From a virus (Duplodnaviria > Caudoviricetes), in IMG/VR virus record IMGVR_UViG_3300025150_000026, positions 1 to 37,144 of that record: 37,144 bases of DNA; one strand, given 5' to 3'. The position numbers and the translations under genes are program-made. Below are positions 1,474 to 36,655 of the stretch, one piece after another. The notes below the pieces were generated by a model. That model searched no databases and was not told where the DNA came from. It worked only from the letters and a program-made list of their open reading frames with translations. The number at the start of each line of letters is the position of its first letter. Within the stretch, counting starts at the first letter, position 1.

Positions 1474-2166
1474 CTATTGACGGCCCTGACTTCTGCCGAG
1501 CACCTGACGGCAAATCTCGTAGAACTCCTGCTCGGTTCGAGAACCCTTGGTCGTGTTCATCAGATAGGTGCAGAGAACCACGTTTCCTTTGACGTAGCCT
1601 TTTTGGGGGTCGAGCCGGTCAACCGACATTGACTCGGATGTAGCGTGACCTTTGCCGTAGGAGTCCCAGTCCATTTCGACTCCCGAGTAGTAGCAGAGGC
1701 CCTTCTGTTGATGGAACAACCCGACCAGGTAGTCCGGCTCAAGGTCGAACGGGACCCCCTGTGTCCGAGCCCGCTTGGCGTACCCGCCTTTCTGCCGGGC
1801 GAAGTACCAGCGAAGGGCAACATCACCACCCTCTGTGAGGTTTCGTTCCCGCCATCTGTCGTGCCGGTGGCGGGCTGCGGTCTTCCTTTCGGGGTCGGCA
1901 TGGTACAGCCGGGTTTTGTCCCTGGTGCATGGAATACAATAGGGTTGCCGTCGTTCCCCCGCAGAATACCTGGTGTCCGAATACCAGCGGTAGGACTCAC
2001 GGGACAACCACTCCCCACAGGATGAGCACTTGTAGGTCCCGTCAGGACGTTCCGTCTCAGCCTTCATGCAAACCCTGCTACAATAATAGGTTTTACCCTC
2101 CTTCACTTTGCTGTCATGGCGACGAACAGAGGCTCCACAGGGGCATTTGAGGGTAAGGTATGGCAT
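1474..2166 (-). CDS. Free-standing HNH/His-Me finger homing endonuclease
   Basis: N-terminal Cys clusters; C-terminal QQKGLCYYSG...SVDRLDPQKGYVKGNVVLCTYLMNTTKG typical of phage HNH-like nucleases; lower GC than flanks. Confidence 0.75.
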   Translation of the reverse strand: MPYLTLKCPCGASVRRHDSKVKEGKTYYCSRVCMKAETERPDGTYKCSSCGEWLSRESYRWYSDTRYSAGERRQPYCIPCTRDKTRLYHADPERKTAARHRHDRWRERNLTEGGDVALRWYFARQKGGYAKRARTQGVPFDLEPDYLVGLFHQQKGLCYYSGVEMDWDSYGKGHATSESMSVDRLDPQKGYVKGNVVLCTYLMNTTKGSRTEQEFYEICRQVLGRSQGRQ

Positions 2167-4137: not shown

Positions 4138-4709
4138 GCGGGTTCCTCCAACGGCTCAAGCGGGAGCATGGGGGTGACCTGGCCCCGCTTGAGAGGCTCG
4201 CCAAGGCTGTGGGCAAAGAGTTGGAGGACTTCGCCTTCTCCCAGGGGAAGATGGTGGTATCCGAGATCCAGAAGGCGGCCCGGAGAGCCAGAGTTCCTTT
4301 GCCCTACCTCTTCTGGACTCTGGTGGAACAGCCTCAGTTGTGGCCCCCGCTGGACCCGAAGAAGAAATCCAGCCTCAATTGGGCCGTATTCCTCATGGAG
4401 GAGAGCAAGGCCACCCCGAACTACGCTTCGGGGTTCCAGCTTCCTGACGAGGGGGATGAGCCTGCCGTCGAGGACGTGATCACGGCGGCAGCCACATGGG
4501 CTCACGGTCCTTTGTGGGGCGGTCTCCTGCGGAAGTACATGGCCATCCTCGACGCCAAGAAGGGCGAGGCCGCCAAGCTGCTCGGAACGAGCACCGATGA
4601 CGCCAGAGCCCGCCTCGAATCCACGTTCCTGGTGGCGGTCAACCGGCATCCGAGGTGGTTCCGGCACACCGACCTCCTGGCCTGGGTCGTCCGGCTCTTC
4701 CTCAAGTAG
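4134..4709 (+). CDS. Hypothetical protein
   Basis: GTGA overlap with the previous stop; host-like codon usage from 4134 within ORF 3612..4709. Confidence 0.65.
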   Translation: MSGFLQRLKREHGGDLAPLERLAKAVGKELEDFAFSQGKMVVSEIQKAARRARVPLPYLFWTLVEQPQLWPPLDPKKKSSLNWAVFLMEESKATPNYASGFQLPDEGDEPAVEDVITAAATWAHGPLWGGLLRKYMAILDAKKGEAAKLLGTSTDDARARLESTFLVAVNRHPRWFRHTDLLAWVVRLFLK

Positions 4710-4764
4710 GGGGCTCCTACTCCTGCCAAGAGGGGTAGTCGGAGGGGAACCAGCGAGGACCCGG

Positions 4765-6534
4765 ATGTCGAAACCGATGAGCCCAGAACTGGATGCGGCG
4801 TACAAGAAGCTGAAGATCCTTCGTACCCGCACGGATCTGAAGCTCAAGCCGAACCCGTACCTCAAGGACACGTTCACCGGGTTCGACGGCAAAGAGCATC
4901 CCCTCACGGTCCGCTACTACCAGGTGCAGATGATCCTTCACCTGGTCGCCATGACCCGGTTCGTCGTCGGGGATGACACGGGTCTTGGCAAGACCCTGGA
5001 GGCCATCGCCGCCCTGACGTTCATCTGGTCCCAGAACCCCAACCAGAAGGTCATCATCCTGACCACGAAGTCGGCGACCCCGCAATGGGGGGCCGAGGTC
5101 AAGAAGTTCACCGATGGCGTCACGCCTTACGTCTGCCAGGGATCTCCGGGCTTCCGGCGGATGATCCGAGACCAGTTCGAGCAGCACGCCGGGAGCCCCG
5201 CTGTGCTCGTGATGGGCTATCGGACAGCCGTGCAGGACTTCAAGCACATTCAGGACTGGGACGGCTACATCCTTATCACCGACGAGGCCACCGCCTACAA
5301 GAACCCGAAGACCCAGGTACATCAGGTGGTCGAGTTCATGGCAAGCGTGAGCAAGCGGGTTTGGGCGCTCACGGCCACCCTCATCAAGAACAACCTCGTC
5401 GAAGGCTACGGCATCTACCGGGTCGTCCAGCCCAACGTGTTCGTCAACGACCAGGGCAAGCCCATGTCGTTGACGCAGTTCATGTACTACTTCTGCATCG
5501 TCGAGATGATGGCCCTCCGCCGTGGACCCCGCATCCCCCGGGTGGTGGGTTATTACCCCGACAAGGTGAAGGAGTTCCGAGAGAAGATCGATGCCTTCTA
5601 CCTCGGGAGGCCCAAGCACGCCGTCGCCGATGAACTTCCGTCCCTCACCCTGCGGACCATCGAGGTCGGCCTCTCTCCCGAACAGGCGGCCAAGTACCGG
5701 GAGGCCCTTGGCGGGCTCCTGACCGTCGGCGAGGCCACGGGAGACGAGAAGACCAAAGAGGTCACCAAGCTCACCGCCATCACCTACTGCCAGCAGATCG
5801 TCAACCACCCGGCCCTTATCGAGTGCAGTGGTGGCAGCGAGAAGCTCGACGCCCTCATCGAGCTTCTGACCGACGGAGACCTGGCCGACGAGAAGGTCAT
5901 CATCTTCACCCGGTTCAAGAAGATGGTGAACCTGCTCATGCCTGTGCTGGAGAAGCGCCTGGGCAAAGGAAAGGCCGTCCGCATCACCGGAGACGAGAAC
6001 GGACAGCAGCGGGAGGAGGCCAAGGCTGCATTCCAGAATCCCGATTCTGGAGTGCAGGTGGTGTGCATCACGATGGCGGGCTCGGACGCCATCAACCTCC
6101 AGGCGGCCAAGGCCATCGTTTTCTTCGACACACCTTTCTCGGCGGGGGACTACCTTCAGATCCTCGGCCGCATGATCCGCATCGGGTCCATCCACGCCGG
6201 TGTCTACGCCATCCACCTGGTCGCCCGGTGGGACCGGAAGACCGTGGACCACCGCATCATGGAGATCCTCACGAAGAAGATGCGCCTGCTCGAAGCGGTC
6301 CTCGGCAAGCGGCTCAAGGGCGAGAGCGTGTCCGATGAGGTGATCTCCGCCACCAGCGACGTGAACGACCTGTTCGACGCCCTCAAGGCGGACGCCAAGG
6401 AGGTCGCTGGGGGCACAGGTTCGGGTAACAAGAAGGTGGACATCTCGAAGGTGCTCCCCTCGGACGAAGCTCCTGCCGCCGTGCAGCGTCCAGAGCCGCC
6501 GGGGGACGAGATCAGCCTGGACGACTGGGACTGA
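4765..6534 (+). CDS. SNF2-family (SF2) helicase/ATPase
   Basis: GDDTGLGKT (I), ITDEAT (II), LTATLIKN (III), KVIIFTRF (IV), INLQAA (V), QILGRMIRIG (VI); start ATG 4765 after GAGGA. Confidence 0.92.
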   Translation: MSKPMSPELDAAYKKLKILRTRTDLKLKPNPYLKDTFTGFDGKEHPLTVRYYQVQMILHLVAMTRFVVGDDTGLGKTLEAIAALTFIWSQNPNQKVIILTTKSATPQWGAEVKKFTDGVTPYVCQGSPGFRRMIRDQFEQHAGSPAVLVMGYRTAVQDFKHIQDWDGYILITDEATAYKNPKTQVHQVVEFMASVSKRVWALTATLIKNNLVEGYGIYRVVQPNVFVNDQGKPMSLTQFMYYFCIVEMMALRRGPRIPRVVGYYPDKVKEFREKIDAFYLGRPKHAVADELPSLTLRTIEVGLSPEQAAKYREALGGLLTVGEATGDEKTKEVTKLTAITYCQQIVNHPALIECSGGSEKLDALIELLTDGDLADEKVIIFTRFKKMVNLLMPVLEKRLGKGKAVRITGDENGQQREEAKAAFQNPDSGVQVVCITMAGSDAINLQAAKAIVFFDTPFSAGDYLQILGRMIRIGSIHAGVYAIHLVARWDRKTVDHRIMEILTKKMRLLEAVLGKRLKGESVSDEVISATSDVNDLFDALKADAKEVAGGTGSGNKKVDISKVLPSDEAPAAVQRPEPPGDEISLDDWD

Positions 6535-8906: not shown

Positions 8907-9511
8907 GACACTGGATCGCCAAGAAACCCTCGGAGGACCACCACGACAAGGACGACTGGTCGGATTCCCTTAGCGACCCGACCCGAAGGAAAAACCGTCT
9001 CTGGTTCTACTCGGAGGTGACCCCCGAGACGATCCAGGCGTTCGTGACCCAGCTTCACGAGGCCGAGGTGGAAGCTCTGCGGATGGCTTCCGAACTAGGG
9101 GTCGCCGACATCCCGGTCCATGTTCACATCCACAGCTACGGTGGGGACGTGTTCTCGGGCATGGCCGCCATGGACGCCATCTTGGAGACTCGGAAACGGG
9201 TCCCGGTTCACACTCACATCGAGGGGGCGGCAGCATCAGCAGCCACGCTGATGTCCGTGGCGGGCACCCGGCGGACCATCGGGCAGCACAGCTTCATCCT
9301 CATCCACCAGATCTCGTCGTCCTTCTGGGGCAAGTTCGAGGAGTGGAAGGACGAGATGAAGAACAACGACCTGCTCATGAAAACGGTCGTGGACTTCTAC
9401 GTGGAGCACGCCCGCATGGATGCCCGTCATGTGCGGCAGGTGCTCAAGAAAGACCTCTGGTTCGACGCCAAGCGGGCTCATCGCCTGGGCCTGGTGGATG
9501 AGATCCGGTGA
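8903..9511 (+). CDS. clpP: ClpP-like serine protease
   Basis: IHSYGGDV, AASAAT (Ser), LIHQ (His), DLWFDA (Asp), GLVDEI. Confidence 0.88.
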   Translation: MRHWIAKKPSEDHHDKDDWSDSLSDPTRRKNRLWFYSEVTPETIQAFVTQLHEAEVEALRMASELGVADIPVHVHIHSYGGDVFSGMAAMDAILETRKRVPVHTHIEGAAASAATLMSVAGTRRTIGQHSFILIHQISSSFWGKFEEWKDEMKNNDLLMKTVVDFYVEHARMDARHVRQVLKKDLWFDAKRAHRLGLVDEIR

Positions 9512-9761
9512 AGGTCATCCACGTCGCCAGGGTGCCTCTGGCCGGAACCGTCGCACGTACCGCTCTCCAGTTGATGCACAGCGAGACCCCGCTGTGAGCA
9601 GCGGTGGGCAGGTCGCCAACATCTCGAAGGTGTCGCACATCTACGGCGGGGGCCGAGGGCTCGGAAGGGACATCCCTGTGGAGGAGGCCCGTGGTGACCC
9701 GGGGTACGGTGATGCCGGGGGACCTGCCCGGTATTTCAAACAGGTGCAGGAGCAGCCAACG
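9508..9761 (+). pseudogene. Internally deleted, frameshifted copy of the MTase middle module
   Basis: VKVIHVARVPLAGTVARTALQ (stop at 9595-9597) matches the start of 14559..15275; another frame gives DAQ...GDAGGPARYFKQV, matching LDEQ...GDDGGISRFFKQV of that gene. Confidence 0.65.
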
Positions 9762-11666
9762 ATGTCGATGCCCGAAGACCTGATCGACTACCTGACCAAG
9801 ATGATCGGGACCCCGACCATGCAGGGGCTCTACATGAGCCGCATCGACGACGAGACGCTCCGGGGCTGGAAGAACAACAGCATCCCAGGGCTCTTGGTGG
9901 AGGGGCGGCCAACCGCCGCACAGGCCCAGGAGTTGATGAGGGTCCTCATGCCCGGTGCTCACCTCCTTCTCGTGGCTCCCGATGAGGAGCCGACCGGACA
10001 CACGGGTGCTTGCACCATCGAGGACGCAGGGTTTGAGATCCGTGACGCCATTCTCTGGGCTCGTGAGGGGGGCAAGGCCCACTACGTCCCCAAGTCCAAT
10101 CGCAAGGAGCGGGAGGCGGGCTGCGAGAACCTCAAGGGCAAGGCCGGACACGAGGCGGTCGAGCGGAAAGCGGACACTGCGGGGCTCAACAACCCCCGGG
10201 CCGGGGCCGGTCGGACGGCGGGTCACGTCAAGAACTTCCACCCGTGCCTGCACCCCGATGCTCTGGTGATGACGGAACAGGGGTTCCGTCCGATCTCAGA
10301 GCTTGGGGTCGGCAGCATGGTGTATTCGGCTGACGGCCAGTTTCACATGGTCGAGCACGTCAGCCGTCACCCTTACACCAGCGAGCACCTGTACGAGATC
10401 TTCGTGCAGGGAACCAACTACACCACGCTGGCGTCGGACAACCACCCGTTCCTCATCTGGCGGCCCGCTCGTAAGGGCAACGCCATCGTGGGCGGAGAGG
10501 CGCTCTGGCTGGAAGCTCAGGAGGTCCGCAAAGGCGACTATACGATGACCCCGGTGTTTCCCGAGCCGGACGGAGAGAGCATCGACCTTCGCATCACCCG
10601 TGAAAACGTGGCACAGGGGAGTAACCTGTCAGAGTTGATGTTCCTGTTCGGCCTCTGGCTGGCCGAAGGCGTGGCTCATAGGGCGGGCCACGGGTCGAAT
10701 GTGTACCCCTCGTTCACTCTCAACCTGAACGAGACGGACCTCATCGGGCGAATCGAGACGTTTTTCAGTGGCCGAGGGGTCAACGTCGGAGTGTACCCAA
10801 AGGCTGAAGGGGCGTCGGTGCAGGTGGTGGCCTTCGACCCTCGTGTGGGGGCGGAGTTCGTGCGCTTGGGGGGTTCAGGGGCCTCGACCAAGCGGCTTCA
10901 CCGGGCTGTGTTCGAGTTCCCCGGAGACCTCCGCAAGCAGATCCTTGACGGATGGCTGGCCGGGGACGGCGGACGTGTGCGGACTTGGCGGCAGGGGAAG
11001 ACGGTGAGCCCTGACCTCGCCTCCCAACTTCGGTTGCTGGGGGAGGCCGCTGGATACAAGGCCAACATGCACTGGTTCGATGCAGAGCCGGGGGAGATTC
11101 AGGGTCGTCAATTCAAGGAGACCCTCCCGCATATCCAGCTTCGGTTCTACGAGCGGGACATGGTAGAGAATGGACGGAAGCCTGCCCGCCCCGTGCGGCT
11201 GATTCACGATGGGGTCGAATACCGCCTCTGCTACGTTCAAGCCGTCGTGGAAGTGCCCTACGAGGGCGAGGTCGTGAACTTGTCCGTTCAGGGGTCTCCC
11301 ACGTTCCAGACGGCGGTGGGGATGAGCCACAACACGGTCAAGCCCAAGGAGTTGATGAAACGGCTCCTCTCCGACGTGCCCACCACAGCCGGACCCGTCC
11401 TCGACCCGTTCATGGGTTCGGGCTCGACGGGGGTCGCCTGCCTGGAGACGAAGCACGACTTCGTGGGCATCGAGATGGGGGAGGAGTACCTGGAGATCGC
11501 CGACGCCCGCATCCGGCACTGGAATCAGGTGGGGAACAAGGGCGCATTTGGTGCCCACGATGCCCCCAACGCCACCATCGTGTCCGACCATGAGCCCCTG
11601 CCGGAGGAGTTTGAGCCTTCTGCGGAAGATACCATCTACATCCTATTCGGCGGGGGGGACGAGTGA
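9762..11666 (+). CDS. DNA methyltransferase SAM-binding half (beta-class N6A/N4C), lacking DPPY, intein-containing
   Basis: RVLMPGAHLL, IEDAGFEIRD, KNFHP|TVKP, VLDPFMGSGSTG (motif I), FVGIE; motif IV position reads LLVEGRP. Likely start ATG 9762 after GGAG. Confidence 0.85.
   Translation: MSMPEDLIDYLTKMIGTPTMQGLYMSRIDDETLRGWKNNSIPGLLVEGRPTAAQAQELMRVLMPGAHLLLVAPDEEPTGHTGACTIEDAGFEIRDAILWAREGGKAHYVPKSNRKEREAGCENLKGKAGHEAVERKADTAGLNNPRAGAGRTAGHVKNFHPCLHPDALVMTEQGFRPISELGVGSMVYSADGQFHMVEHVSRHPYTSEHLYEIFVQGTNYTTLASDNHPFLIWRPARKGNAIVGGEALWLEAQEVRKGDYTMTPVFPEPDGESIDLRITRENVAQGSNLSELMFLFGLWLAEGVAHRAGHGSNVYPSFTLNLNETDLIGRIETFFSGRGVNVGVYPKAEGASVQVVAFDPRVGAEFVRLGGSGASTKRLHRAVFEFPGDLRKQILDGWLAGDGGRVRTWRQGKTVSPDLASQLRLLGEAAGYKANMHWFDAEPGEIQGRQFKETLPHIQLRFYERDMVENGRKPARPVRLIHDGVEYRLCYVQAVVEVPYEGEVVNLSVQGSPTFQTAVGMSHNTVKPKELMKRLLSDVPTTAGPVLDPFMGSGSTGVACLETKHDFVGIEMGEEYLEIADARIRHWNQVGNKGAFGAHDAPNATIVSDHEPLPEEFEPSAEDTIYILFGGGDE
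10245..11333 (+). mobile_element. Intein with LAGLIDADG endonuclease (363 aa)
   Basis: HP|CLHPDALV ... ASDNHPF ... FGLWLAEG ... GWLAGDG ... MSHN|T. Confidence 0.92.
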
Positions 11667-12109
11667 TGGCTGGGGGGTCGGTAGCTGCGAGCATCCTCGA
11701 TGGCCTCTTTGAGGCGGATCATCGGGCTCCAATCTCGTGGACCATGCCAGCGGTTCCCTCGTTTCATGCTCACCCAAACCTCAACGGCCTCACGCCAGAG
11801 AACGTAGTCTCGGGCTTTCCTCGACCGCAAAGGGTACTTATCAAGAAGCTCGACCAACCGGAGGCAGTCGGCTTTGGACTGAATCACCCAGGCCATGCAC
11901 GGGTTGCTGTTGCCGCTGCGGGTTCGGTCGGGCTTGAGAACGCCGAAACCCGTCTGTCCCCAGATCTCTCGGAGGACGGGGGTGTCATCATCTCTGAGTT
12001 TGAGGGCAAAATGGGTGGCGTAATAAGCGCCTCTTTTGCCTTTGTGGACTCGGAAACACCCTTCACCGTCGATGAGCCCAGAGAGCCAGTGGCCGAAAGA
12101 TGTATCCAT
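11636..12109 (-). CDS. Free-standing single-motif LAGLIDADG homing endonuclease
   Basis: WLSGLIDGEGCF motif, KYPLRSRKARDY; SD GGAGG upstream on the minus strand. Confidence 0.85.
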   Translation of the reverse strand: MDTSFGHWLSGLIDGEGCFRVHKGKRGAYYATHFALKLRDDDTPVLREIWGQTGFGVLKPDRTRSGNSNPCMAWVIQSKADCLRLVELLDKYPLRSRKARDYVLWREAVEVWVSMKRGNRWHGPRDWSPMIRLKEAIEDARSYRPPSHHSSPPPNRM

Positions 12110-12136
12110 CAACTACCTCCCAGACTTGAGGGGAGT

Positions 12137-15332: not shown

Positions 15333-15653
15333 ATGCGGACTCTGCAACGCCATCACCTGCGGCATCTGCCCCACGGGTCCATCGTCCGGGTGACCCACAA
15401 GGGTAAGCTCTACAGGTTCGCCAAGCTCAATCCTCGTTGGTGGGCTCACACGATGAACCCCAAACTCGGGGTCACCATGGCCGTCATGGAGAACCTGGCC
15501 TCTTTGGGCCGGGTCGAGATGCCTGACCTCCCAGACCACCTCCCCGCCGCCCTTCGGATCGAGGTGCTCGACCGTCCCGTCCCGGTTGAATGGGATGCCT
15601 ATAGCGGGACGTACATGAAGGCCAAGCAGCCCGACGAAGGAGACGAGCAGTGA
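15333..15653 (+). CDS. Hypothetical protein
   Basis: ORF with host-like codon usage, coupled to the next gene. Confidence 0.6.
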   Translation: MRTLQRHHLRHLPHGSIVRVTHKGKLYRFAKLNPRWWAHTMNPKLGVTMAVMENLASLGRVEMPDLPDHLPAALRIEVLDRPVPVEWDAYSGTYMKAKQPDEGDEQ

Positions 15654-17575
15654 TGAGCACTCCCAACCTGAACGGCTACCGGGACGAGCCCGAGAGCGAC
15701 AAGCACTGGACGTTCGAGGACGACTTGGAGCCCCGCATGGGGGCCGCCTCGGGTTCCGGTGACATGGACCTCCGGCCGTTCACGAGCCCCCGGCATGACC
15801 AGCGGAGCACCTCTAGCTGCGTCGGCAACGCCGTGGCCAAGGCCCTGGAGATCAAGCGGATCATGAAGCACGGGCACGACGCCCATGTGGACCTCTCCAG
15901 GCTCGCCATCTACTACCTCGCCCGGGAGTTGATGTTCCCGCCGGAGACCCACATGGACGGCGGGACCTACATCAGCCACGCCTTCGACGTGCTCCGCCGG
16001 TTCGGTGTCCCGCCCGAGGAGGACTGGCCCTGGGACACCGACAAGGTGACGACCCCGCCCTCGTGGAGGGCGATGCGGAAGGCGTACCTGCACAAGATCG
16101 ACTCGTTCTACCGGATCCGGTCTTCGGGCCAGGACCGGGTGGACGCCGTGGTCAAGTGCCTCCAGGCGGGCAACCCGGTGGTGTTCGGGACCAACGTGGA
16201 TGGCACCTGGTTCGGGTATGGGAAGTCGGACGTTCTTCAGCCGGTGCTCGACCGGGACCGGAGCGGACGGCACGCCACGGTCCTCATCGGGTTCAAGGAC
16301 GGCAAGTTCATCGGCGAGAACTCCTGGGGCTGCTATGATGACCAGACGGAGGTTCTGACAAGCGTTGGCTGGAAACCTTGGCCCTCCGTCAAAGGTGACG
16401 AGGAGTTCGCCACCCTCAACCCACAGGACCATACGTTGGAGTACCAGCAGGCGTCCGCCCATCACATCTACCCCTTCGATGGAGAGCTTCATCGTTTCGT
16501 CAGCCAAGGAGTGGACCTGTTGGTGACGCCAAACCACCGGATGTACGTGACCAACCACCACAAGCGTCATCGACCGAACTGGCCCATTATTCGAGCGGAT
16601 GCCATCGACGGCTCCAGACGGGTTTGTTTCAAGAAGGACGCCGAAAACCCGGTCTCCGATGTGGACAAAATCCGGGTTGCAGGGATGGAGGTCCCTTCAG
16701 ATCTTTGGTTGGAGTTCCTGGGTTATTTCCTGTCCGAGGGGTCTACCACATCACGGTCTGGCATTCGCACCCGTGAACGCACTCGCTCATACATGACAAA
16801 GGGGGGAGTGCTGCGTTGTGGAACCACGGGGCAATTCATCGAGAATATGGATCCGGTCATGGAGGAGCGGAGTTGCTCCTACACCGAATCCTACATCGAG
16901 AACTACTATGTCACTGCCCTGAGCCAGGCCGTCGGAGAGGATGCAGACAAGATTGCTGCGTGTACGACCAGGCTGCCGTTCACGTTTGCTGAACACGTTC
17001 AACCGGCCTCGGGCAACCGTCAAGCACGTCGAGTGTGGACGTGTCAGGGCAAGCCGTTGTTCGAGGCCCTCCAGGTCTTCGGCAAAGCCCCAGAGAAGTA
17101 TATCCCAAGGGAGTTCCTCCGGTTGTCCCGGCGTCAGAGCCGTATTTTGCTGGACGGTCTGATGCTTGGTGATGGTACGAGCGAAGGTTCTTGGGTCTAC
17201 TACACCTCCTCTCGACAATTGGCTGATGATGTACAGGAACTTGCCCTTCGTTCCGGGTACGCCGCCGACATCAGCATTACCGACCGGACGAATCAGCCGG
17301 GCTACAATGAGCCTGAGTACGTGGTCGGGATCAAACGAACTCGGATACGACCTGAAGCTCGATATATGCCAATCAGAGTGCCCTACCAAGGCAAGGTCTA
17401 CTGCGTGACTGTTCCCAACGGTCTGTTGTACGTGCGGAGGAATGGTCAGGCCGTTTGGTGTGGCAATTCGGACTGGGGTGACGACGGCTTCTACTGGATG
17501 GACCCGGCCGTGGTCGCCCACAGCGTCAGCAGCAACTTCTGGACGGCCTTGGCCGGTTGGGAGGACTTCCTGTGA
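15650..17575 (+). CDS. Papain-like C1 cysteine peptidase, intein-containing
   Basis: DLR...DQRSTSSCVGNA (Gln, Cys), GRHATVLIGF (His), ENSWG|SDWGDDGFYWM (Asn). Confidence 0.9.
   Translation: MMSTPNLNGYRDEPESDKHWTFEDDLEPRMGAASGSGDMDLRPFTSPRHDQRSTSSCVGNAVAKALEIKRIMKHGHDAHVDLSRLAIYYLARELMFPPETHMDGGTYISHAFDVLRRFGVPPEEDWPWDTDKVTTPPSWRAMRKAYLHKIDSFYRIRSSGQDRVDAVVKCLQAGNPVVFGTNVDGTWFGYGKSDVLQPVLDRDRSGRHATVLIGFKDGKFIGENSWGCYDDQTEVLTSVGWKPWPSVKGDEEFATLNPQDHTLEYQQASAHHIYPFDGELHRFVSQGVDLLVTPNHRMYVTNHHKRHRPNWPIIRADAIDGSRRVCFKKDAENPVSDVDKIRVAGMEVPSDLWLEFLGYFLSEGSTTSRSGIRTRERTRSYMTKGGVLRCGTTGQFIENMDPVMEERSCSYTESYIENYYVTALSQAVGEDADKIAACTTRLPFTFAEHVQPASGNRQARRVWTCQGKPLFEALQVFGKAPEKYIPREFLRLSRRQSRILLDGLMLGDGTSEGSWVYYTSSRQLADDVQELALRSGYAADISITDRTNQPGYNEPEYVVGIKRTRIRPEARYMPIRVPYQGKVYCVTVPNGLLYVRRNGQAVWCGNSDWGDDGFYWMDPAVVAHSVSSNFWTALAGWEDFL
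16331..17467 (+). mobile_element. Intein with LAGLIDADG endonuclease (379 aa, Gly-Asn C-terminus)
   Basis: SWG|CYDDQTEVLT ... VTPNHRM ... FLGYFLSEG ... GLMLGDG ... WCGN|S. Confidence 0.92.
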
Positions 17576-27817: not shown

Positions 27818-27871
27818 AACCCGAGGAGGGTGAGGGCCGACAAGACCGCCCACCAACGGAGCCATCACGTC

Positions 27872-28744
27872 ATGAACAAGACTGCCGCACTGGCTGGAAA
27901 GCTGCTCGATGCAGCCACCGATCCCAAGCTCGCCAACCAGGTCATGCCGAAGGTGGCCCGGCTCCTGAAGCAGGGCCATCCGGTGCAGGCGACCGTTCAC
28001 GAGTCCTCCAAGACGGCGGAGGCGGACAAGCAGGCGATGGCCCAGGCGGCTTTCGCCGCCTGGGCCATCGCCCGGGGCAAGACCTACACCGAGAACGAGT
28101 GCAAGGCGATGCTCGACCGCCTCGGCGTACCGTTCGTGACGGCCGAGGAGGGGAAGGCCAAGCGCAAGAGCGGTCCTCTGGCGGTCGGCGAGACGGTCTA
28201 CCCCGACCGCAACCAGAACACCAACGAGCAGAACTCCGACGCCTGCCGCAAGTACCACCTCCAGATCGGCCAGGTGGAGAAGGTGGAGCGGGACGGCGTG
28301 GCGGTCCGGTTCGAGGACAACAGGCTCGTGCGGTTCGAGGGTGGCAACACCCCGGGCAAGGACATCGGCCTTTACCGGGGCACTCCGGCCAACGTGGTCG
28401 AGCAGCGCCCCACCGGCAAGGCAGCCGTCGAGATCGTGTACATCTCCGACAAGAACGCCAAGCCCCCGACGAAGACCCAGGTGGAGCAGGTGCTCGACTA
28501 CGTGGAGAAGGGGGAGGCCCGGGGTGAGAGCCGCAACAAGGCGTACTACACCGGCCTGGCGCTCAAGCAGTCCGAGGGGAAGAACGGCTACTACTTCACC
28601 ATCTTCTCCCAGCAGCGGGATCGATTCCCCCGCAGCATCAACCCCCGGAAGGGCACCGTCCTCTACATCGGACGCCTCGGAGGTCGCCCCGGCGGCTGGA
28701 TGAAGGAGTACGAGAAGATGGTCGCCGGAGTCCAGAGCGAGTAG
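27872..28744 (+). CDS. Hypothetical protein
   Basis: ATG 27872 after GGAG; strongly host-like codons. Confidence 0.7.
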   Translation: MNKTAALAGKLLDAATDPKLANQVMPKVARLLKQGHPVQATVHESSKTAEADKQAMAQAAFAAWAIARGKTYTENECKAMLDRLGVPFVTAEEGKAKRKSGPLAVGETVYPDRNQNTNEQNSDACRKYHLQIGQVEKVERDGVAVRFEDNRLVRFEGGNTPGKDIGLYRGTPANVVEQRPTGKAAVEIVYISDKNAKPPTKTQVEQVLDYVEKGEARGESRNKAYYTGLALKQSEGKNGYYFTIFSQQRDRFPRSINPRKGTVLYIGRLGGRPGGWMKEYEKMVAGVQSE

Positions 28745-31061: not shown

Positions 31062-31390
31062 TGGACGAGCCCGACCTCAAGCCCCCAATGCAGAGCAAGA
31101 AGTTCGTGGCGTTCCTGGTGTCCGAGGTCACCTGGAAGGTCATCGTGGGGCTCATTCTCGTCCTGGGGATGAAGAATGCCAGCGTGGACCTCATGGTGGG
31201 GAGCATCATCCTGGCCTGCGTGCTCATCGCTGGGTTCGTCGAGGTGACTTATATCGGAAAGCAATCGGATTTGGACAAATATACCCGTTTGGCTATGATG
31301 GGCATCAAGGAAACAGCCTCCGGGTTGCGAGGCAAGGAGCCATCTGATGCCAAAACGGTTCGACCTGACAGGGAAAATGTTCGGGAGTAG
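31058..31390 (+). CDS. Small 2-TM membrane protein (possibly holin-like)
   Basis: SKKF followed by two hydrophobic helices and a charged tail. Confidence 0.55.
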   Translation: MMDEPDLKPPMQSKKFVAFLVSEVTWKVIVGLILVLGMKNASVDLMVGSIILACVLIAGFVEVTYIGKQSDLDKYTRLAMMGIKETASGLRGKEPSDAKTVRPDRENVRE

Positions 31391-32362
31391 AGCAGTGCTG
31401 AAGAAGGTGGACATTCCCGGGCGGCAGGCCCACTGGCTTGTCCGCTGCTCCTGCGGGCGTGAGGATGTTGTCCCCTCGCAACGGCTACGCAACGGTCTTG
31501 GCAAATCTTGCCGGGACTGCGGTTCTCGTGGCAACCGCCTGATCGACATCTCGGGTCGATCTTTCGGGTCTTGGACAGCCCTGCACTGGAACCCGGACAA
31601 GGACGGTTGGGCTGTTCGGTGTTCCTGCGGGAACCTCTCCACGGTAAAGGGATGTGACCTCCGAGGAGGTCACAGTACCCAATGTAAGGTGTGTTCTTCT
31701 CGGAAGTATGACTACAAGATGGATCTCACCAACCCGGATTGGTGTTGGTTGTTGGGCCTTTTTCACGGAGACACGCCCGATACAGAATGGGGCATGGGGG
31801 GTCTTTGGACTTTGCCTGCAAGCCCAAAGACCGCCAGGCCGAGATCCTCAAGGGTTTGAAATCGGTTGGGTTGATGGGTGGGATCCACCAGAACCGGAAC
31901 GGGGTCCGGGTGTTCTCCACAACGCTGGCTCTGGACTTTTTGCGGTTCAAGGTTTGTGGCGTTGGCCATGAGTCCTGGGTTTTTGACGAGACACCCCTAC
32001 ACAAGGGCGAGTGGGTGGCTGGGCTTCTTGACGCTGACGGGTCAGTGAGACCCGACGGAAACATTCTGTTCTACCAGAAGCCGCATGGCGGCCTGGGTCT
32101 GCTTTGCGGCATCCTTGACGAGTGGGGGGTTCTCTATACACGCAAACCACAGAGGGGCCGTAACTTGGAGGTCGTGCGAGTGCGGAAACAATCGGTCCCC
32201 TTTTTTGCGAGACGGGTACGCCCCCGGTTCCTTCCGAAGTACACCCGCCTCGCTCAGATCGCCGCCAACAACGGGCACAGCTTGAAGCTCAAAGGTGCCG
32301 AGTTCACGAAGGACGTGCCGGTAGGGACTTCAGACCGGAACGAGCCTGAATCTCACGGGTAG
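31347..32362 (+). pseudogene. Frameshifted free-standing LAGLIDADG homing endonuclease with two N-terminal DLxGxxFG...RCSCG repeats
   Basis: ORF 31347 reaches WLLGLFHGD at 31772; the continuation HARY...WVAGLLDADG lies in the -1 frame (ORF 31739..32362). Confidence 0.75.
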
Positions 32363-35242: not shown

Positions 35243-35288
35243 TCCCCTGGTAGCGGGTATGGTCGCTCGGGGTCACGAGGAGGCTGCC

Positions 35289-35336
35289 ATGCCGAGAGGG
35301 AGCATCGAGGTCATCACCGGCTGCATGTTCAGCGGT
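35289..35336 (+). pseudogene. Abandoned 5' end of thymidine kinase (MPRGSIEVITGCMFSG), in frame with the HEG
   Basis: Strong SD GAGGAGG; 16 codons paralleling MAGRIEVICGSMFSG at 36122. Confidence 0.85.
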
Positions 35337-35347
35337 GGTTTGCCTAT
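35333..35347 (+). promoter_or_regulatory. CGGT-N6-CCTAT motif at the insertion junction
   Basis: CGGT ggtttg CCTAT N11 GGTGGAGG upstream of ATG 35373. Confidence 0.62.
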
Positions 35348-35372
35348 ACCCCTCCGAGGGTGGAGGTGCTCG

Positions 35373-36137
35373 ATGGGGCGGAAGCTGTCAGAGGAAACCA
35401 AGGAGAAGATTCGTCAGGCCAAACTCGGCGTAAAGCTGAGTGCCGAGACGAGAGCCAAGATGTCCGAGGCCCACAAGGGCAAGTCGCATCCTCATTCCGG
35501 GGCCTCGTTTAGGGGTAAAAGCCACACCGAACAGGCCAAAGCCAAGATGTCCCGAGAGCGGAGGGGTCGGGCGGTATCGGACGAGGCCAAAGCCAAGATG
35601 TCGGCTGTCCGGGCGGGCATACCTAAGTCCGAGGAGACCCGACAGCGCATGTCCACCCATCGACAGGATGCTGATCATCCCGCCAACAAAGCACGATCAG
35701 AAGCGACCTCAAGGTCGAATGCACGGCGGAACATCGAGGGCTCCGGCTTCCACGTCAAGGGCCACTATGATGCTGTGAAGGCCAAGAACACGCCGGTGGC
35801 ATACCGCTCGGTCAGCATCGAACTAAGACTGATGGAGCAGTTCGATGCTGACCCCGAAGTGGTGGAATGGCAGTCCCCTGCCTGTATCCGCTACCGGGAT
35901 ACGAGAGGGGTGGCCCGGATCACGCTGCCGGACTTCTTGGTGACCTACCGGGACGGTTCGCAGAGGCTCATCGAGGGCAAAGGCCCCCATCTGCTGAAAA
36001 GATACCTCAACAGCGAGAAGTTCCATGCTGTCCGGGCGTGGTGCATGGAACGAGATATTCCGTTTTGGATCGTCACGTCTGGACCTCATCCAGATTACAT
36101 CCATCAATGGTCGGAGGTCCCATGGCCGGACGCATAG
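35373..36137 (+). CDS. Homing endonuclease: NUMOD3 repeats plus TnsA-like PD-(D/E)xK nuclease
   Basis: Repeated SEETKEKI/SAETRAKMS/TEQAKAKMS/SDEAKAKMS/SEETRQRMS; YRS...E...DADPEVVEW...PDFLVTY...LIEGKG. Confidence 0.82.
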   Translation: MGRKLSEETKEKIRQAKLGVKLSAETRAKMSEAHKGKSHPHSGASFRGKSHTEQAKAKMSRERRGRAVSDEAKAKMSAVRAGIPKSEETRQRMSTHRQDADHPANKARSEATSRSNARRNIEGSGFHVKGHYDAVKAKNTPVAYRSVSIELRLMEQFDADPEVVEWQSPACIRYRDTRGVARITLPDFLVTYRDGSQRLIEGKGPHLLKRYLNSEKFHAVRAWCMERDIPFWIVTSGPHPDYIHQWSEVPWPDA

Positions 36138-36655
36138 AAGTGATATGTGGGTCGATGTTCAGCGGGAAGTCCGAAGAACTGGTCCGCCGTCTTCGCCGGG
36201 CCAGGATCGCCCGGAAGGCCGTTCTGGCCATCAAGCACGCCGCCGACGACCGCTACCACCCGGAGAAGATCGGGTGCCACACGGGGGAGACCTTCGAGGC
36301 CAGACCCTACAAGACCGTGGCCGGGATCGAGAAGGCCGCCCGTGGGGTCGAGGTGCTGGGCATCGACGAGGCCCAGTTCTTCGGGGCCGACCTCATCCCC
36401 TTCTGTGAGCAGTGGGCAGGAGCGGGGGTCCGGGTCATCGTCGCCGGGCTCGACATGGACTCCGAAGGCAAGCCCTTCGGTCCCATCCCGCACCTGATGG
36501 CCATCGCCGAGAGTGTGACCAAGCTCCATGCCATCTGCGTCACCTGCGGGGAGGAGGCTTCCTTCTCCTTCCACAAGGGTAAGAAAGAGGGCCAGGTCGA
36601 GGTCGGGGCTGACCAGTACGAGGCCCGTTGCCGGACCTGTTGGAGAACTCGATGA
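36122..36655 (+). CDS. tdk: Thymidine kinase (type II)
   Basis: GSMFSGKS P-loop, IDEAQFF, VAGLD, CVTCG and YEARCRTC zinc ligands; SD GGAGG. Confidence 0.95.
   Translation: MAGRIEVICGSMFSGKSEELVRRLRRARIARKAVLAIKHAADDRYHPEKIGCHTGETFEARPYKTVAGIEKAARGVEVLGIDEAQFFGADLIPFCEQWAGAGVRVIVAGLDMDSEGKPFGPIPHLMAIAESVTKLHAICVTCGEEASFSFHKGKKEGQVEVGADQYEARCRTCWRTR

Follow-up and report, generated by a model that had tools for sequence, protein, structure and literature searches.

Layout of the split thymidine kinase locus

The window (the whole stretch of 37,144 nt that was analysed) carries a thymidine kinase gene, tk, that is split by an 830-bp insert inside the glycine codon of its P-loop. The insert consists of a 37-nt leader, an intact gene for a nuclease with NUMOD3 repeats and a TnsA fold, a new ribosome-binding site and 14 tk codons, and the distance between the two copies of the tk P-loop is also 830 bp. 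The features of the locus are as follows.

35278..35283, plus strand: ribosome-binding site AGGAGG of the native tk start, read from the sequence.
35289..35335, plus strand: native tk 5′ stub MPRGSIEVITGCMFSG, with ATG at 35289, ending inside the P-loop Gly codon before Lys; 32-34 of 35 nt identical to the empty alleles L002, L003 and L004.
35333..35347, plus strand: promoter-like motif CGGT-N7-CTAT across the left junction, its CGG matching tk codons and the rest belonging to the insert; seven window matches against 0.2 expected per strand, putative function.
35336..35372, plus strand: insert leader with the nuclease ribosome-binding site GGAGG at 35362-35366; absent from the empty alleles.
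35373..36137, plus strand: gene for a 254-aa nuclease, NUMOD3 repeats followed by a TnsA-fold PD-(D/E)xK domain; assigned from Pfam, the repeats, a structure model, a PDB fold match and invariant residues.
36113..36117, plus strand: ribosome-binding site GGAGG for the rebuilt tk, within the last nuclease codons; comparable sites at L091, L106, L107 and L109.
36122..36165, plus strand: replacement tk start MAGRIEVICGSMFSG, overlapping the nuclease end by 16 nt; 23-26 of 35 nt identical to the empty alleles, with two ATA codons against none of 182 in core genes.
36166..36655, plus strand: native tk body from the P-loop Lys onward; groups with L002, L003 and L004 at 99/99 support and 69-72% identity.

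A preliminary description of this DNA had placed a tk start with a strong Shine-Dalgarno sequence at 35289 and a break just before the P-loop Lys. Both readings hold, as AGGAGG and ATG are read there and identity to the empty alleles stops at 35335. The NUMOD3 and TnsA-like nuclease that it saw between the two tk copies is supported by Pfam (NUMOD3, E 1e-17; Tn7_TnsA-like_N, E 2e-10). The second start at 36122, with its own GGAGG, does open an intact TK of 177 aa that covers positions 1-176 of 176 in the Pfam TK model, and the nuclease stop overlaps this start as described (nuclease end 36137, tk ATG 36122). Two other points hold for the window but do not extend to all of the related loci introduced below. 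The stretch ATGTTCAGCGG is shared by the two tk copies, but this 11-bp repeat is absent at L091, L106 and L107, and a target-site duplication was rejected on this ground. The stub is in frame with the nuclease, but this is found in only two of five loci (the window and L092) and is incidental.

The tk insert is not an assembly artefact, because a second assembly (L001) is 99.98% identical to the window over 5,023 bp and contigs from run X2 span both insert junctions without differences, in a comparison that covered four of the seven listed runs. All seven runs that list the stretch carry a groundwater or aquifer label, three of them at a small share. The gene content of the window includes a DNA polymerase, two helicases, methyltransferases, a pyrophosphatase and several nucleases. 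The window probably represents part of the genome of a large uncultured phage, since relatives of the gene upstream of tk sit on viral contigs of up to 536 kb.

Several other features were observed in the window. A perfect 18-bp inverted repeat with a 4-nt loop (28033-28072) lies inside a 304-aa ORF (27830-28744). A methylase ORF with a weak Hint match (9420-11666) and a papain-like ORF with a LAGLIDADG-like domain (15650-17575) are likely to bear inteins, judging from these domains. Two overlapping nuclease-like ORFs lie between conserved genes at 31347-32362, and they are another optional insert because L003 joins the flanks directly (window 31287 to 32237).

The stub, not the used start, resembles the empty alleles

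Among the 79 tk loci that we recovered, four are syntenic and uninterrupted at 69-73% identity: L002, L003, L004 and L018, the last equal to L004. Up to the junction, the stub is identical to L002, L003 and L004 at 33, 34 and 32 of 35 nt, respectively, against 26, 25 and 23 of 35 nt for the replacement start. The preliminary description had expected unbroken empty alleles, and the syntenic ones read IEVITGCMF(S/G)GK continuously, matching the first copy and not the second. This agrees with its proposal that the first copy is native and the second is cassette-borne. The window tk body clusters with the same three alleles at 99/99 support in a tree of 30 rows from which L115 was left out.

The codon argument first offered for this proposal is less telling. 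The counts of A/T-ending codons (2 of 16 in the first copy, 9 of 24 in the second) are correct, but the CGT and CTT codons fall after the junction, and the test is weak because genes native to this DNA also have many A/T-ending codons at their 5′ ends (2-6 of 11-14 in 12 core genes). The use of ATA, found twice in the replacement and in none of the 182 Ile codons of the 12 core genes, is the stronger sign of a foreign replacement. The residues point the same way. Of 24 TKs at 61-77% identity, 22 have a whole start, with T-G in 18, A-G in 4 and C-G-S in none. The C-G-S motif of the replacement occurs in 92 of 93 weaker, bacterial-type TK matches, a ranking biased by the query, which itself carries C-G-S. 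From the identity to empty alleles, the grouping of the body, the distribution of C-G-S and the use of ATA, we conclude that the stub and the tk body are native and that the 44 nt between nuclease and body are not.

The replacement had been called recoded. We believe it is better read as brought from another tk, as 2 of its 10 codons aligned with the stub differ by amino acid and none of the 22 close TKs has C-G-S; it looks donor-derived rather than recoded in place. The exact crossover points cannot be placed because the closest empty alleles share only 69-73% TK identity, and no near-identical phage with an empty allele is among the 79 tk loci. A relative co-occurring in run X1 carries an empty allele; since it could be identical with a phage already listed among the empty loci, it is not given a count of its own. 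A pattern scan of viral contigs for a TK P-loop without the following Lys gave one match, the phage of the window itself, with a pattern too strict for the other stubs.

The arrangement recurs among relatives

Scans with an alignment of nuclease relatives gave six distinct full-length nuclease loci: the window, L091 (= L108), L092, L106, L107 and L109. The other 8 of 9 loci of one scan and 11 of 14 of another are partial or weak matches with no tk nearby and were left out. A tk stub lies upstream of the nuclease in five of the six loci, L109 being the one without, and in these five the stub breaks at the same codon position. The break falls after the first base of the Gly-position codon in L091, L092 and L106, after the second base in the window, and is ambiguous in L107; at each of the five loci the insert can be read as starting with TG. 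A complete tk follows the nuclease in all five loci with downstream DNA, starting 1-28 nt inside the nuclease end. The replacement tk starts differ among all loci, and the TK bodies of the filled loci share at most about 46% identity in the listed pairs. We note that these loci are not fully independent, as the window, L106 and L107 are syntenic with one another, and so are L091 and L092.

The closest tk relative of L091 (P0376, 94%) starts like the L091 stub and not like the L091 replacement, and P0377 has the same M-K-A-G start as P0376; no DNA relatives of the L091 tk were found beyond L091 itself. The stub of L092 resembles the starts of P0383 and P0384. The stub is thus native in a second lineage too, that of L091. 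At L106 and L107, residues of lineage type (TGCMF and VGCMFAG) are common to stub and replacement, so that a close donor or a duplication in place would fit as well as a foreign donor. A wholly foreign tk at L106 was considered and set aside, since the body nearest to it is that of a family member, L116 (54%). The tk body of L107 forms a long branch in the tree.

We also sampled loci by the gene upstream of tk. Of 53 such loci, tk lies within 3 kb in 10 and is absent from that range in 43. The 10 tk-bearing loci comprise the phage of the window, six distinct empty alleles and an allele with an intein, L119. Occupancy of this one site is thus optional among relatives, with filled alleles also in the syntenic L106 and L107. 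Wherever the DNA can be read, the nuclease family lies directly before tk; the window nuclease has an intact frame and catalytic motif, and two further nuclease relatives (P0013 and P0015) start with tk-like stubs. These findings suggest a nuclease family apparently devoted to tk. Two side observations concern TK proteins. P0382-P0397 form a TK subfamily akin to that of L091, in which A/S-E-K replaces G-K of the P-loop in most members. P0267 is a TK with a short G-S-M start and, together with the nuclease P0003, likely represents another filled allele.

An intein at the same P-loop and a candidate resistance base

The tk of L119 (4116-5717) contains a 349-aa intein (4167-5213) with a Hint domain (E 1e-11) in frame with both exteins and a LAGLIDADG domain (E 5e-7). 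It is inserted between Phe and Ser of the P-loop motif. Because this is 5 nt upstream of the window's break, the P-loop site of tk is the target of another mobile nuclease as well. In the literature covered, no paper on an intein in a phage thymidine kinase P-loop was found. The insert in the window is of a different kind: it has no Hint match, and its nuclease stops in a frame other than that of tk.

The P-loop Gly codon is GGR in all five replacements and GGY in all six empty alleles and the intein allele (Fisher 0.001). The Gly wobble base is a candidate resistance base, but as a lead only, since the split was spotted post hoc, the rows are related and GGR is used in 28 of 54 background P-loops. 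Other candidate differences lie in ACC-GGC-TGC of the empty against TGT-GGG-TCG of the rebuilt allele, and L004, whose P-loop deviates, may be resistant by nature.

These codons bear on another explanation, namely that the same mobile nuclease is at work but the replacement is a local duplication of the host's own first codons, respelled under selection against cutting. The shared P-loop residues of L106 and L107 would suit it, given that 4 of 5 and 3 of 6 of the same-residue codons nearest the junction, respectively, differ synonymously, and so would the Gly-codon split, under the reservations just given. The window replacement, with its two amino-acid changes and two ATA codons, argues against it, as does the distribution of C-G-S, with the query bias noted above. 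We therefore consider a local duplication unlikely and retain a donor-derived start for the window.

A conserved nuclease with a TnsA-like fold

The predicted model of the nuclease has a mean pLDDT of 85. Its best fold match in the PDB is Tn7 TnsA (E 2e-5), and all four matches with E <0.001 are Tn7 TnsA; TM-scores are ~0.33 over the whole length, as only the C-terminal half aligns. The residues E150, P186-D187, E201 and K203 do not vary among the 16 aligned relatives and are present in all six loci, and from the PD-(D/E)xK pattern we take E150, D187, E201 and K203 to be catalytic. Within a 63-codon core, 17-25 of the 34-44 identical residues of each pair are spelled by different codons, which fits selection on the nuclease protein and points to a conserved enzyme. 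A nuclease domain with an intact catalytic motif joined to a DNA-binding module is the composition of a free-standing homing endonuclease.

By the catalytic region, the nuclease has ~19 strong relatives (P0002-P0020). A sequence search of the PDB gave no matches, and a scan of genome contigs gave none either. Among 18 records from isolated phages none covers 80% of the query, so that no full-length relative was found there, and a scan for the distant subfamily P0017/P0018/P0020/P0122/P0124 found no loci. A T4-style hairpin masking the nuclease ribosome-binding site was considered and is unsupported (z -0.09 and 0.71). A perfect 15-bp inverted repeat lies at 35810-35853 of the window, in the conserved catalytic codons of the nuclease; it is not kept at the other five loci, though partly in L107.

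The likeness to Tn7 TnsA (PDB 1t0f, 1f1z) lies in the catalytic fold and motif. Unlike TnsA, the window nuclease is joined to NUMOD3 repeats and lacks transposase partners and transposon ends. The 830 bp hold one ORF and no inverted repeat pairing both ends, and TnsB or TnsC partners, terminal repeats and a target-site duplication, as expected of a Tn7-like transposon, were not found.

The nuclease could instead be a passenger beside tk with another job, the stubs being remnants of ordinary recombination at what is the best-conserved motif of tk. The domain does match a phage head-closure family (phrog_218, E 1e-9), L109 has no stub, and conserved motifs are natural crossover sites. However, presence is patchy among close relatives, NUMOD3 repeats are typical of homing endonucleases, the breaks of five loci agree to within one base, and an intein targets the same codons, which makes a passenger very improbable. 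Removal of the insert from RNA as an unrecognised intron, rejoining stub and body, is barely credible: a U at the stub end and a G at the insert end would give an in-frame G-K join in the window alone, but such boundaries yield none at L091 or L106, no ribozyme core of group I or II was found (no Rfam match at E up to 1 in any of the six loci), the non-coding part is just 37 nt, and every locus whose downstream DNA is available already has a complete tk with its own start.

A promoter-like motif across the left junction

The motif CGGT-N7-YTAT was first suggested by comparing leaders by eye. The window has seven copies, against 0.2 expected per strand, and spacings one base shorter or longer occur near chance. 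Six copies lie 27-85 nt before ORF starts (3327, 15248, 27803, 30693 and 34755 on the plus strand, 2222 on the minus strand). The remaining copy, at 35333-35347, lies across the junction, 40 nt ahead of the nuclease ATG. In L106, L107, L115, L117 and L119 the motif is likewise found before the gene upstream of tk, and it likely represents a phage-specific promoter class conserved across the phage family.

Two free-standing genes of the opposite strand lie behind this promoter-like motif. An endonuclease VII-like gene (1474-2166, minus strand) is preceded by one of the six copies, and a LAGLIDADG gene (11636-12112, minus strand), located between two DNA methylase-like ORFs, by a one-base variant (12150, minus strand).

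The motif straddles the left junction in three of five loci (the window, L091 and L092). Neither L106 nor L107 has it at the junction, and none of the six distinct empty alleles has it at the P-loop. The junction of the window and that of L091/L092 lie one base apart, a shift that leaves CGG adjoining T. Either the target would complete the promoter, or the element's own CGG may have served as microhomology.

A second motif, approximately CGGGTAG, often occurs shortly before gene starts in the window (1988, 14308, 21589, 26794, 30078 and 32357) and upstream of tk in L002, L003, L004 and L116. It has 21 matches on the plus strand, against 10.8 expected, and is possibly another promoter class.

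A model for the cassette

Taken together, we think it probable that the insert is a tk-specific, non-splicing homing endonuclease cassette that sits in the P-loop codons and carries a substitute gene start. The nuclease is predicted to cleave tk alleles that lack the insert, in the P-loop codons or close to them. It would be expressed from the promoter-like motif that spans the left junction and, during co-infection, would cut the tk of the other phage near the P-loop. Repair would copy the donor's leader, nuclease gene, ribosome-binding site and first tk codons into the recipient, with the left join at the cut and a right crossover that returns to the tk sequence of the recipient. This would strand the first 15 codons of the recipient gene, and TK would be made from the new start overlapping the nuclease stop. 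The rebuilt P-loop may escape cutting through the different spelling of the donor. The stub-less L109, in which the nuclease lies directly before tk, may represent the simple donor arrangement. One-sided, microhomology-guided repair of homing breaks has been described for T4 (PMC2988022, in the part covered). Repair of this type could turn the arrangement of a simple donor such as L109, with the nuclease before tk, into the stub layout, in an order of events that we infer.

A fuller reading joins these parts, and we offer it tentatively, as possible but on balance doubtful. It holds that a TnsA-fold homing endonuclease family parasitises phage tk without splicing. Its left end would complete a promoter with the P-loop letters of the target, so that correct insertion switches the nuclease on, and its right end would be a selected, cut-proof tk start with a purine at the Gly wobble. 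The element would compete with an intein for the same five bases.

Relation to known systems

The closest design we found is in fungal mitochondria, where mobile endonuclease ORFs make gene hybrids in Allomyces macrogynus atp6 and in Glomus atp6, atp9, cox2 and nad3 (PMC3630166, PMC4019555, as far as these texts were covered). In both cases a non-intron endonuclease is inserted in a gene and brings a foreign terminus, and the stranded copy is nearer to close relatives than the used copy. A duplicated terminus with a native stranded copy and a foreign used copy is found in the window and L091. The fungal hybrids, however, have an exchanged C-terminus and nucleases of the LAGLIDADG or GIY-YIG type, whereas in the window, which is phage DNA, it is the N-terminus that is exchanged, together with a new ribosome-binding site, and the nuclease combines NUMOD3 with a TnsA fold. 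In nuclease type, exchanged terminus and kind of genome the window thus departs from the mitochondrial hybrids, and by analogy the tk cassette appears to work like one of them mirrored to the 5′ end without being a member of that class. Free GIY-YIG genes duplicated along with the atp9 N-terminus are also described, with no mechanism given (PMC7487136, in the part covered).

Among phages, the cassette resembles the intronless homing of T4 Seg and Mob endonucleases in having no intron or intein, in its conserved site in a gene of nucleotide or DNA metabolism and in starts and stops that overlap neighbours. The T4 enzymes cut hundreds to thousands of bp from their genes, whereas the window nuclease gene lies at its presumed target and leaves a stub. 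Aeh1 mobE in nrdA and T4 mobA in a topoisomerase gene are likewise endonuclease genes inside a host gene, tolerated without splicing. There, however, the enzyme is split into two reassembling polypeptides, and here one whole polypeptide would be made from a substitute start (PMC2988022 for these comparisons, in the part covered). Small fragments of essential genes in nuclease-flanked islands (PMC10055350) and fragmented gene calls (PMC8351571) have been treated, and the covered parts of both sources do not describe the tk-cassette layout. Across the part of the literature covered, we found no phage report of a homing endonuclease replacing a gene's 5′ end, and none in tk. Within the same partial coverage, no TnsA-fold homing endonuclease family was found.

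Homing endonucleases are classically described as living harmlessly in conserved motifs by means of introns and inteins. The cassette suggests a third way in phages, in which the homing endonuclease brings a spare gene start. The fungal precedent for this design limits the surprise; particular to this case are the family apparently devoted to tk, the TnsA fold, the promoter-like motif at the junction and the rival intein. Gene callers will mis-start such genes and hide their chimeric 5′ ends. The stub would narrow down the probable cut site to one or two bases, and target and putative resistant allele can thus both be read from the genome. Because a single phage family has the cassette, the intein and empty alleles all at the same P-loop, competition between these strategies may be testable.
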